NCBI GenBank assembly: GCA_052033935.1
Contig: JBPOJE010000011.1
Location: 139,814-203,813 of the forward strand
Length of the DNA: 64,000 bases
Reading direction: 5' to 3'
Origin: Armatimonadota bacterium
Lineage (GTDB): Bacteria; Armatimonadota; UBA5829; DSUL01
Made by a program: the position numbers and the translations under genes
Shown: positions 37,572 through 41,390 of the stretch, piece after piece
How the letters are laid out: the number at the start of each line of letters is the position of its first letter
Numbering within the stretch: position 1 is the stretch's first letter
Notes under the pieces: generated by a model
The model's input: the letters and a program-made list of their open reading frames with translations, nothing else
Told to the model about the DNA's origin: nothing
The model's database searches: none

Positions 37572-37643
37572 CAAGACAGCCTCGGGGGTCTCCTTCGGAA
37601 ATGTGAAGCAAAGAACTCAGGTGCTTCAAGGGCGTACCGAGGA

Positions 37644-37816
37644 CCGATGTCCGGCATCTCCGCTGCCGGACGGGCGTCCGCGGGGTCTCTGACCCCTGAC
37701 CGTTGTGCACGCCGCGCACTGCCGTCTGCGAACGCCATCCCGGATGGCGAGGCTGTTTGCCTGAATGGACGCCCCGCAAGATCCTGCAGACGTAGTCTGC
37801 GCGAGCAGAGATCGCG
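37644..37816. repeat. Copy A of a ~170-nt structured intergenic repeat family
   Basis: Its first 48 nt (ccgatgtccggcatctccgctgccggacgggcgtccgcggggtctctg) are identical to 41222-41269. Its end (gcgcgagcagagatcgcg) is identical to the end of copy B. The interior is about 70 percent similar. Confidence 0.7.
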
Positions 37817-37854: not shown

Positions 37855-37884
37855 TTGACTCGCCGCATGCCCGTCTGGTAAGAT
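37855..37884 (+). promoter_or_regulatory. Sigma70-like promoter (TTGACT-N18-TAAGAT) driving the riboswitch leader
   Basis: cctaTTGACTcgccgcatgcccgtctggTAAGATgcc, about 25 nt upstream of the riboswitch-like element. Confidence 0.45.
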
Positions 37885-37909
37885 GCCCATAGACAACAAC
37901 TGAATACCG

Positions 37910-38098
37910 AACGCGGTCAGGTTTCCCGGAATATTCCGGGACTAAGAGCGAAGACGGTACAAATCCGTCGCGGGCCCGCCGCTGTAATCGGGGACGAAAC
38001 CGACGTTCTCCACTGCAATGCCGAAAGACTCAGAGGGCATTGTGGGAAGGGTTCGGAAGTAGGATGATCCGAGAGCCAGAAGACCTGCCTGACTGCGA
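37910..38098 (+). ncRNA. Cobalamin (AdoCbl) riboswitch-like leader
   Basis: Ordered conserved blocks: GGTacAAAtCC, CGCGGGcCCGCCgCTGTAAtcGGGG (versus consensus GGTGxAAxTCC...CCCGCxACTGT), the B12 box tCCACTG, GGGAAGG, and a 3' GCCAGAAGACCTGCC (compare btuB CCCGAAGACCTGCC). 5' GGTCAGG can pair with the 3' CCTGAC to form P1. Confidence 0.6.
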
Positions 38099-38125
38099 TT
38101 ATATTCTACATCTTCGGAGGCTGAG

Positions 38126-38977
38126 ATGTTGGAAGCAAGTGAAGCAATAGGCGTATTACGGGCTTCCGTCCAATCAATCCGAAATGGGCGAGGAGCCCGT
38201 TTCGGCATATATGGTTTCACGCTCATCGAACTGCTTGTGGTTATCGCAATCATCGCCATTCTCGCGGCGATATTGTCTCCTGTGTTTATATCTGCCAAGG
38301 AGCAGGCTCGTCAGGCAAAGTGCATCTCTAACCTCAAGCAGATTACTTCCGCATGGCTGATGTACGTCGACGACAACTCAGGCCGTGCCTGTCCTTCCTA
38401 TTACATATCATCAGACGGATGGCGCAGGGCTTGGGATTTCGATCTCAAGGACGTCAAGTCCGGCGGCAAGATCACCACTATTTGGAAATATGGGCTGCTC
38501 GGACCCTACGCCAAGAGCGGAGAGATCAAGAGCTGTCCTTCGTTTCATGGCGGCAAGTGGGACAGACCCTATACAGGCTATGCCTACAACGCAAGCTACA
38601 TAGGCGGGGACATCACAGTCGATGGCCAGGTTTACGTAGAACAGTGGACCGGCCGTCCTCACACAATAGCAACTTTAGGTCAGATACGGAACCCATCCAG
38701 AACTGCCGTTTTTGCAGATGGCGGCTTCGGCAATCCAGTGAGCGCCCACAACTACCTGCGAGCACCAAGTGACGAGTACTTCCAGGCAGGTACCGTCCAT
38801 TACAGGCACAACGGTGCGGCGGTAGTAGCCTATGCCGATGGGCACGTGTCCTTGGTGTGCGCCAAGTTCACTCACTATACGGACGTCCCGTGGTTGCAGA
38901 CCGGCAAGTCGGCTTTCGACTGCGCGCTTGATACCGGAGGTCTTTCCCAGGATGATTCTGCTTATGATTTGGACTGA
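38126..38977 (+). CDS. DUF1559 (H-X9-DG) prepilin-type N-terminal cleavage/methylation domain protein
   Basis: [55 protein letters not shown], and C-terminal [22 protein letters not shown] 5 nt upstream of the ATG. Confidence 0.85.
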
Positions 38978-39002
38978 TACAACACAAAGTAGGAGAACGC
39001 AA

Positions 39003-40466
39003 GTGAAGCAGAAAATGACGCGAGTATTGCTGCTCGCTATGGTTGCGCTAATTTGCGCGGTCGGGGCTCACGCCATGGACTGGTGGGCTTCGGAAGTGAT
39101 AGGCTCAAGCCGCCTCGGCAATAGCCCCTATGACGATCCGACGGCTACTCTCGGCAAGCCCACGGTCTGGATGAACAACTCCGGTGCTCCCGGCGATCCG
39201 GATCCCTGCGCGGTATCGATGGTCATCCCGGCTTGGAACGTAGGCTGGCCGAGTGGCGAAAAGCTGATTACCACCATTATGGCTAGGACATCCACACTTC
39301 CCGCTGGCTATGTCACGGTCAAGTACACTACCAGAATCTATGATGACCCTAGTAACTGGTACGGCAAGGACTTTATCGTATTCGGCAACAGCTTCTTTGC
39401 AGCGGCTGGGCATTACGTGTATTCGGACTCGAATATGGAGGATGTTGTTATAGACTCCATTGATGGCGGAGGCGGGTGGTGGGAACCGATGCCGGTCAGT
39501 GTCAGCCAGGACAACATTACCTGGTATTCCTACACCAATGGACCCTATGCCGATGACTACGCCCCTACACAAGCCCTCGCCTGGGACTGGGTTGAAAACC
39601 ACTGGCTTAAGAACAGTGCGGGTGTTGACGTGGAACTTGATTTCACACGGCCGGTGACCCCGGGATACGGCAAAGCTAGCTTCAACGGGAAGACTGCGGC
39701 GGCAGGCATTGATATGTACGGCGGATCTGGCGGCGGGACTGCCTTTGATCTTGCCGAGTTACCCCTTCCCATAGATCCAGTTACGGGCCGCAAGTGGATC
39801 CAGTACATCAGGATCGATGGCGCGATGGGTGAGGTCGATGCTTTCGCCCGAGTGAGCCACCAGATTGATGAGATGTCCATCGGCGCCGTGAAGAAGCTGC
39901 CGGACGGGACTAGGGTGGTTCTCAAGGAATCTGTTGTGTCGGCTGCCACCTACGAGGTCGGGAGGTATTGTTATGTCGAGCACCCGGACAGGTCGGGCGG
40001 CATCAGGGTCATTGGTCGGGTTCTTGACCGCGATAAACACTACATTATCTACGGCGACATGGACACCATGGGAGATGAGCGTGTGATCCTCGCCACGGCA
40101 ATTACAGCCATTGAGGATAACACAGATCCGGTTGAGCCGGTTGGCATGCCAAACAGAAACATCTACGGCCACGGCCTGAACACGGCTGGACTTCTTGTGC
40201 AGACTTGGGGAAGGGCGCTCTCTGTTGACCAGGCTGACAAGTCTTTTGTGATTGACGATGGCTCCGGCAAGCCGATCAGGTGCATCGCCCCCAGAAGTAC
40301 AGAGGCAGCCGAGCCGAACAACGGCGTGGCGGTTCATCCGGATTTCAGTCCGCCAGCACAGGGCCATTTTGTAAGAATTACGGGCATCAGCTCGCTTGAG
40401 CGCAATGCTGAGGATGAGGTGGTGCCCGTGATCAGACTTAGGGACATCTCAAGCGTTGTCGAATAG
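39003..40466 (+). CDS. Secreted hypothetical protein ending in the conserved C-terminal module
   Basis: AGGAGA 6 nt upstream of GTG 39003 (ATG alternative at 39015). Signal peptide MTRVLLLAMVALICAVGAHA. C-terminus CYVEHPDRSGGIRV...GLNTAGLLVQTWGRA...FVIDDGSG...ISSVVE. Confidence 0.8.
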   Translation: MKQKMTRVLLLAMVALICAVGAHAMDWWASEVIGSSRLGNSPYDDPTATLGKPTVWMNNSGAPGDPDPCAVSMVIPAWNVGWPSGEKLITTIMARTSTLPAGYVTVKYTTRIYDDPSNWYGKDFIVFGNSFFAAAGHYVYSDSNMEDVVIDSIDGGGGWWEPMPVSVSQDNITWYSYTNGPYADDYAPTQALAWDWVENHWLKNSAGVDVELDFTRPVTPGYGKASFNGKTAAAGIDMYGGSGGGTAFDLAELPLPIDPVTGRKWIQYIRIDGAMGEVDAFARVSHQIDEMSIGAVKKLPDGTRVVLKESVVSAATYEVGRYCYVEHPDRSGGIRVIGRVLDRDKHYIIYGDMDTMGDERVILATAITAIEDNTDPVEPVGMPNRNIYGHGLNTAGLLVQTWGRALSVDQADKSFVIDDGSGKPIRCIAPRSTEAAEPNNGVAVHPDFSPPAQGHFVRITGISSLERNAEDEVVPVIRLRDISSVVE

Positions 40467-40508
40467 CACAGTCCCTATGAACCAACACTCTAAAAGAGGA
40501 AAGGACAA

Positions 40509-41162
40509 ATGAAGAGAACCATTATTCTCGCACTGCTGATGTTCGCCCTGGGCACCTCGATGGCATCGGCAGCCCCGTACGCTTTCAACTCGGCATCGGG
40601 CAAGACAGCCTGGATCGAGGTGGATGCCTGGTCAGGCAGCGGAGCAAACGAATCGATTCTGGTCGTGGACTGGAACGTTATGGGCGGCCCGTATGCGACC
40701 GAATCACACGCGTTTGGCTTCCGCTGGGACGGCACGGCGTACGTGTCGGATATGCTCAACGCATTTCACAACGCCGGTGTATTCACCCTAAGCTCGGGCT
40801 ATGGCGGGGCGTTTCTTATGGACATCGTCTACGATGACGGTATTGACCACCACACGCACGCTGATGAAGAGGGAAGCTGGAATCTCGCCAGCACTGACGA
40901 TCCCTACGCCCAATGGGGCGCAATGAGCTCTGACGGGACCAAGCTAGGTGAATGGGATGCCAATCCGGCCGGCTATAACCAAGAGTTGCTTGCGAATGGT
41001 CAGCTCGAAGGCATCAACGCGATTTCGTGGTTCGGCGGGGATCCCAACGCGTATACGTTGGATGTTCCTTTTGCCGCTGCCGTGCCTGAGCCGGGTTCGC
41101 TGGCGGGGCTTCTGGGAGGACTTGTTTCGATTAGTGGCCTTGTGTTGCGCAGTCGAAAGTAG
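40509..41162 (+). CDS. PEP-CTERM sorting-domain protein
   Basis: Signal peptide MKRTIILALLMFALGTSMASA. C-terminal VPEPGSLAGLLGGLVSISGLVLRSRK is a textbook PEP-CTERM (VPEP, TM, RSRK). Strong RBS AGAGGAAAGGA. Confidence 0.85.
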   Translation: MKRTIILALLMFALGTSMASAAPYAFNSASGKTAWIEVDAWSGSGANESILVVDWNVMGGPYATESHAFGFRWDGTAYVSDMLNAFHNAGVFTLSSGYGGAFLMDIVYDDGIDHHTHADEEGSWNLASTDDPYAQWGAMSSDGTKLGEWDANPAGYNQELLANGQLEGINAISWFGGDPNAYTLDVPFAAAVPEPGSLAGLLGGLVSISGLVLRSRK

Positions 41163-41212: not shown

Positions 41213-41221
41213 AAGGCCCCA

Positions 41222-41390
41222 CCGATGTCCGGCATCTCCGCTGCCGGACGGGCGTCCGCGGGGTCTCTGGCCCCTGGCCGTTGCGCAGGCCGGCGCCGTT
41301 CCGGATCGGCGGGGCTGCTTGCCTGTATGGACGCCTCGCAATAAGGAGCAAAGCCCCTACAGACATGGCCGCGCGAGCAGAGATCGCGCG
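41222..41390. repeat. Copy B of the structured intergenic repeat
   Basis: See copy A. Lies in the convergent gap between the PEP-CTERM gene and the 41409-41795 gene. Confidence 0.7.

Follow-up and report, generated by a model that had tools for sequence, protein, structure and literature searches.

A riboswitch-controlled pseudopilin cassette as a probable B12-scavenging system in Armatimonadota and other bacterial phyla

Introduction

A cassette of three genes (A, B and C), located behind a cobalamin riboswitch in a 64-kb stretch of DNA from an Armatimonadota bacterium (the window), probably represents an undescribed B12-scavenging system, because its genes recur behind the same switch in several phyla and two of the encoded proteins are predicted to fold like B12-binding proteins. 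Few microbes synthesise vitamin B12, a cofactor of 1.3 kDa that most of them require, so that the systems devoted to its uptake shape microbial communities. To our knowledge, the passage of B12 across the diderm envelope is largely unknown outside the Proteobacteria and Bacteroidota.

The riboswitch and its expression platform

Scanning of the entire window with Rfam cmscan at gathering thresholds yields a single match, RF00174 (Cobalamin), at positions 37902-38106 (+), which covers the full length of the model (positions 1-189 of 189) with a score of 116.9 bits vs a cut-off of 31.5 and an E-value of 1.2e-28. This segment is a genuine AdoCbl-type cobalamin riboswitch aptamer; the riboswitch proposed in the initial annotation thus passes the covariance-model check far above threshold, and all of its conserved blocks are present in the announced order, i.e., GGTACAAATCC, CCCGCCGCTGTAA, TCCACTG (the B12 box), GGGAAGG and GCCAGAAGACCTGCC. 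The leader comprises the following elements:

37855..37884 (+): sigma70-like promoter candidate, TTGACT, 18-nt spacer with TG, TAAGAT (consensus match)
37902..38106 (+): cobalamin riboswitch aptamer, AdoCbl-type (RF00174), with aptamers similarly placed in loci L001-L006, L008 and others
38109..38128 (+): expression-platform hairpin CAUCUU-CGGAGGCU-GAGAUG (predicted fold)

The 3' end of the aptamer is separated from the AUG of gene A, on the same strand, by 19 nt of the 5' leader. A terminator-type expression platform has been ruled out because of this short spacing and because no terminator is predicted between the aptamer and the AUG. An anti-RBS structure had been suggested around GGAGG, and a hairpin is indeed predicted there, with the Shine-Dalgarno GGAGG (38116-38120) in the loop and the gene A AUG (38126-38128) in the 3' arm. 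Across 7 Armatimonadota loci, in which the gene A proteins are just 47-77% identical, the motif CAUCUUCGGAGGCnnAGAUG does not vary. With ample coenzyme B12, the aptamer in its ligand-bound state would stabilise this conserved hairpin and translation of gene A would be blocked, so that expression of the whole transcript would probably drop; when B12 is scarce, the operon would be expressed. The hairpin would directly control the first cistron only, and we infer that genes B and C follow. The sigma70-like promoter reported upstream is present and well placed, some 18 nt 5' of the aptamer, but matches to the promoter consensus are not enriched over shuffled sequences (3 found vs 2.4 expected), so that it is no more than a plausible promoter.

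The three proteins of the cassette

In agreement with the initial annotation, three co-oriented genes separated by gaps of 25 and 42 nt directly follow the riboswitch:

38126..38977 (+): gene A, prepilin-type, divergent DUF1559 / H-X9-DG pseudopilin-like protein of 283 aa (profile matches)
39003 (GTG) or 39015 (ATG; database gene call)..40466 (+): gene B, secreted protein (ORF)
40509..41162 (+): gene C, protein of 217 aa with a signal peptide, a domain of ~170 aa and a PEP-CTERM anchor (ORF, profiles)

Protein A contains the prepilin cleavage/methylation motif G|FTLIELLVV followed by a hydrophobic helix, and matches both N_methyl PF07963 (28.8 bits vs a cut-off of 21.2) and TIGR02532 (31.6 bits vs 16.3). 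The DUF1559/SBP_bac_10 profile PF07596 is also matched above its cut-off (28.1 bits vs 23.3), but over profile positions 2-42 of 268 only, and TIGR04294 (H-X9-DG-CTERM) remains, with 16.7 bits, under its cut-off of 19. The H-X9-DG motif occurs in protein A and in 57 of 62 orthologues, and many other positions are conserved as well. Protein A is thus pseudopilin-like, as described earlier, and would be a divergent relation of DUF1559. The DUF1559 family receives few mentions in the literature searched. Protein A shares its prepilin-type methylation motif and hydrophobic helix with the pseudopilins of the T2SS and of competence (ComG) pseudopili, and a ComF-like gene follows gene A in 15 Planctomycetota loci. 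Unlike these systems, gene A is a single pilin-like gene in a B12-regulated operon, belonging to the uncharacterised DUF1559 / H-X9-DG expansion, and no assembly ATPase, platform or secretin gene occurs among the annotated conserved neighbour families of the cassette loci.

Protein B consists of a Sec signal peptide, in line with its initial description as a secreted protein, an N-domain of ~260 aa named B_N (aa ~28-285), and a C-terminal part which corresponds to a tandem OB-fold module (aa ~290-487). It matches no Pfam or NCBIfam family and, judged from its sequence, B_N is a new domain; the B_N family comprises ~970 clusters at 50% identity, and GTDB species genomes contain at least 461 occurrences of the gene B family. 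By its predicted fold, a domain of protein B may resemble the B12-binding domain of Bacteroides BtuH, which measures ~270 aa. Among the best 50 Foldseek matches of the predicted structure in the PDB, only OB folds occur and BtuH is not found. Similarly, the gene B profiles A1, A3 and A5 retrieve no BtuH chain (BT_1956, BT_1488, BT_1490 C-terminus) from all PDB sequences at E <= 10, and searches of Pfam (E <= 10) and NCBIfam (E <= 0.01) offer no tie to known B12 binders. Depending on the protein, B_N is fused to other domains, which among 74 multidomain B_N proteins include DUF4430 (4), DUF4465 (1, E 1e-54), beta-propellers (6), DUF1559 (2), PEP-CTERM (15) and dockerin (6); P0107, for example, combines B_N, DUF4430 and dockerin. 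Moreover, ~30 of 139 representatives are C-B fusions.

Protein C ends in VPEPGSLAGLLGGLVSISGLVLRSRK, comprising a PEP motif, a transmembrane helix and a basic tail. TIGR02595 (PEP-CTERM) is matched above its cut-off (19.6 bits vs 16), which bears out the earlier view of a PEP-CTERM-anchored protein, and PF07589 is borderline (19.0 bits vs 20.7). The domain of ~170 aa is predicted to adopt the same fold as the beta-domain of transcobalamin and intrinsic factor and as DUF4430. At the sequence level, no match to PF14478 (DUF4430) occurs in Pfam at E <= 10, hhalign against a DUF4430-bearing protein gives a probability of 0.2, and profile A4 finds no match among all PDB sequences at E <= 10. The initial remark that the three families include no known B12 protein holds at the level of sequence, since in profile searches B and C show no relation to BtuH, DUF4430, DUF4465 or any PDB chain. 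The assignment of B or C as a member of BtuH or DUF4430 was dropped because the PDB, Pfam and NCBIfam profile searches, and hhalign for gene C, were all negative.

The operon had also been described as bracketed by two copies of a structured repeat:

37643..37816 (+): upstream copy of a ~175-nt direct repeat (repeat comparison)
41221..41388 (+): downstream copy, beginning 59 nt past the stop codon of gene C

Both copies are real, sharing a 49-nt identical core and being the only two in the window (vs 0 expected). A multi-hairpin fold is predicted; its stability significantly exceeds that of shuffled sequences in the upstream copy (z -3.3 / -3.7) but not in the downstream copy (z -1.1 / -0.4). 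The repeat corresponds to no Rfam family, an exact 28-mer scan found it in no metagenome contigs, and no role could be found for it. Independent Logan unitig assemblies break inside the downstream copy; these breaks were ruled out as evidence of excision at the repeat, since they are accounted for by de Bruijn-graph branching.

Distribution and genomic context

The comparison covers 80 loci, 78 from GTDB species genomes and two from cultured organisms, fetched separately. Families B, A and C are found in 76, 62 and 48 of them, respectively, always co-oriented, and gene A orthologues adjoin gene B in 62 of the 80. Depending on the lineage, the order, starting from the riboswitch (RS), is RS-A-B-C in Armatimonadota and RS-C-B-A in Planctomycetota, Verrucomicrobiota and Kiritimatiellia, and C/B arrays devoid of A occur in Desulfobacterota. 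The arrangement is conserved in at least 5 phyla, and the cassette occurs in cultured Sedimentisphaera, Desulfobacca, Desulfosarcina, Desulfobulbus and Kuenenia.

Homologous operons co-occur with cobalamin riboswitches. Of the 72 cassettes with enough upstream DNA, at least 58 have a same-strand riboswitch, detected with an nhmmer profile, within the preceding 1.5 kb, and all 74 nhmmer matches in 803 kb lie on the cassette strand. Some 30 loci were checked with Rfam and carry a cobalamin-clan riboswitch: 11 of the first 12 loci with upstream DNA have one, co-oriented and 5' of the cassette, and others were confirmed at all 14 loci with weak nhmmer matches and at the S. cyanobacteriorum and D. 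acetoxidans cassettes. For ~11-14 of the 72 cassettes, no cobalamin riboswitch occurs in the upstream DNA examined. In L010, the cobalamin riboswitch lies inside the C/B array and a c-di-GMP riboswitch precedes the first cassette; certain Desulfobacterota copies are instead governed by c-di-GMP riboswitches, a control that would be just as compatible with a biofilm or surface role. Two observations that would speak against a riboswitch-controlled operon, namely the lack of a covariance-model match and relatives consistently devoid of a B12 element, were both looked for and neither was found.

Links to B12 transport and salvage are seen in S. cyanobacteriorum (CP019633.1), in which the order RS-C-B-A-cobT-cobS-cobC-btuF-btuD-btuC-btuR-cobU-cobQ is tightly packed on one strand; C and B correspond there to L21SP3_01692 and the gene after it, at about 2.0877-2.0901 Mb. 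Homologues of btuF, btuC or btuD also adjoin the cassette in L009, L039, L043, L049 and L064. Most cassettes have no adjacent importer; in the window, no btuFCD or cob genes adjoin the operon, which contains no TonB-dependent transporter gene.

Comparison with known corrinoid-binding systems

The loci for cobamide uptake in Bacteroides (BtuB and the lipoproteins BtuG, BtuH, BtuJ/DUF4465 and BtuK; PMC8941943, PMC10404256, PMC12751083) are likewise cobalamin-riboswitch operons encoding several extracytoplasmic accessory proteins, which there capture B12 at the cell surface, and the association of a propeller with a BtuH domain in BtuG1 is mirrored by the fusions of B_N to beta-propellers. In contrast, the cassette proteins show no sequence-level similarity to them and are not lipoproteins, but combine a Sec signal peptide with an anchor of the PEP-CTERM, dockerin or OB type. 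They also have a pseudopilin as a constant partner, and their hosts belong to the Armatimonadota, Planctomycetota, Verrucomicrobiota, Kiritimatiellia and Desulfobacterota. Finally, the cassette almost never adjoins a TonB-dependent BtuB: in the 80 loci, 43 large ORFs flank the cassette in the same orientation, and a single one encodes such a receptor, vs 40-55% reported for DUF4465 loci (PMC13398666).

The DUF4465 B12-binding proteins of Verrucomicrobia and Planctomycetes (D5EK51, 'Pan'; PMC13398666) are secreted B12 scavengers from the same phyla, linked to the cassette by the single B_N-DUF4465 fusion. They differ from the cassette proteins by their fold (augmented beta-jellyroll family) and by the frequent location of their genes beside TonB-dependent transporters (PMC13398666). 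With respect to intrinsic factor, transcobalamin, haptocorrin and bacterial DUF4430 (PDB 3u7z), protein C is devoid of an alpha-domain, contains ~70 extra residues and carries a PEP-CTERM anchor, its likeness residing in the predicted fold.

Our locus L080 (CP002629.1, 897-918 kb) is identical with the series of tandem AdoCbl / c-di-GMP-I riboswitches described in Desulfobacca acetoxidans (Sherlock et al. 2022, PMC9481103), and the ORFs located behind these logic gates are homologous to gene C, gene B and family F8. These ORFs were left unexplained, conductive pili being speculated (PMC9481103). Unlike this series, the window has one AdoCbl riboswitch only and lacks a c-di-GMP aptamer. In the literature searched, 'cobalamin riboswitch' was not found together with DUF1559, nor with Planctomycetes and pilin, and its combination with PEP-CTERM gave irrelevant papers only.

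Proposed function and alternatives

It is likely that the operon serves a B12-repressed, extracytoplasmic capture and hand-over of corrinoids, with the AdoCbl riboswitch acting as an OFF switch on the three genes. Protein C would be exported, anchored at the cell surface by its PEP-CTERM tail, and would bind corrinoid via the domain whose predicted shape recalls the transcobalamin and intrinsic factor beta-domain. The secreted protein B would supply a second binding or hand-over domain, resembling that of BtuH, and would be retained at the envelope by a module that differs between lineages, the tandem OB fold here and PEP-CTERM or dockerin elsewhere. Protein A, either anchored in the inner membrane or assembled in a short fibre, would couple capture to the periplasm, a BtuF/BtuCD-type ABC importer then taking over. 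Such a capture route would replace the TonB-dependent BtuB in these lineages. Of the two roles envisaged in the initial annotation, surface-associated cobalamin capture is favoured by the predicted folds, the fusions with B12 binders and the btuFCD/cob synteny, and surface remodelling under B12 control explains less. A more specific and rather doubtful proposal is a TonB-independent corrinoid importer built on a pseudopilus, in which C and B would capture cobamides and A, as a short retractile or piston-like fibre, would carry the cofactor across the outer envelope to BtuF/BtuCD.

Corrinoid might also be bound for extracellular hoarding, as a reservoir, or to compete with neighbouring cells, a role put forward for Bacteroides BtuJ1; such binding would not be an obligatory step of import and the pseudopilin would be an anchoring or assembly partner only. 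Anchors of the surface or matrix type (PEP-CTERM, dockerin, tandem OB module), the multiplied C and B copies of the Desulfobacterota arrays without A, and the lack of an importer next to most cassettes would suit this explanation, which is nevertheless unlikely: in several lineages the cassette forms a direct operonic union with btuFDC and salvage genes, and a membrane-anchored pseudopilin accompanies it almost constantly in four phyla, which suggests a delivery path.

It is quite improbable that the operon is devoted to surface remodelling, adhesion or biofilm formation by proteins handling no B12, the vitamin being a signal only, e.g., of a partner organism or of community density. PEP-CTERM proteins are generally tied to exopolysaccharide and biofilm (PMC7726332), cassette genes of Desulfobacterota are also gated by c-di-GMP riboswitches (PMC9481103), and B and C lack sequence similarity to known B12 binders. 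Pure signalling, however, leaves unexplained the two independent predicted folds which point to B12-binding domains, the fusions of the B domain with DUF4465, DUF4430 and beta-propellers, and the single operon shared with btuFDC and cobTSCU. A chance or decayed riboswitch match in front of three unrelated neighbours has a negligible probability in view of 116.9 bits over the full model and an arrangement kept across at least five phyla, nothing having been found in its favour.

Significance

The capture and hand-over reading supplies three specific candidate proteins for the envelope step of B12 uptake in Armatimonadota, Planctomycetota, Verrucomicrobiota, Kiritimatiellia and Desulfobacterota. 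If correct, it would provide a first functional handle on the DUF1559 pseudopilins, reveal a transcobalamin-beta-like binder on bacterial surfaces and explain the position of the AdoCbl / c-di-GMP logic gates reported for D. acetoxidans. Should import by a pseudopilus hold true, it would represent the first function assigned in the very large DUF1559 expansion of the Planctomycetota and their relatives, and a new uptake route for large nutrients in bacteria with few TonB-dependent transporters.

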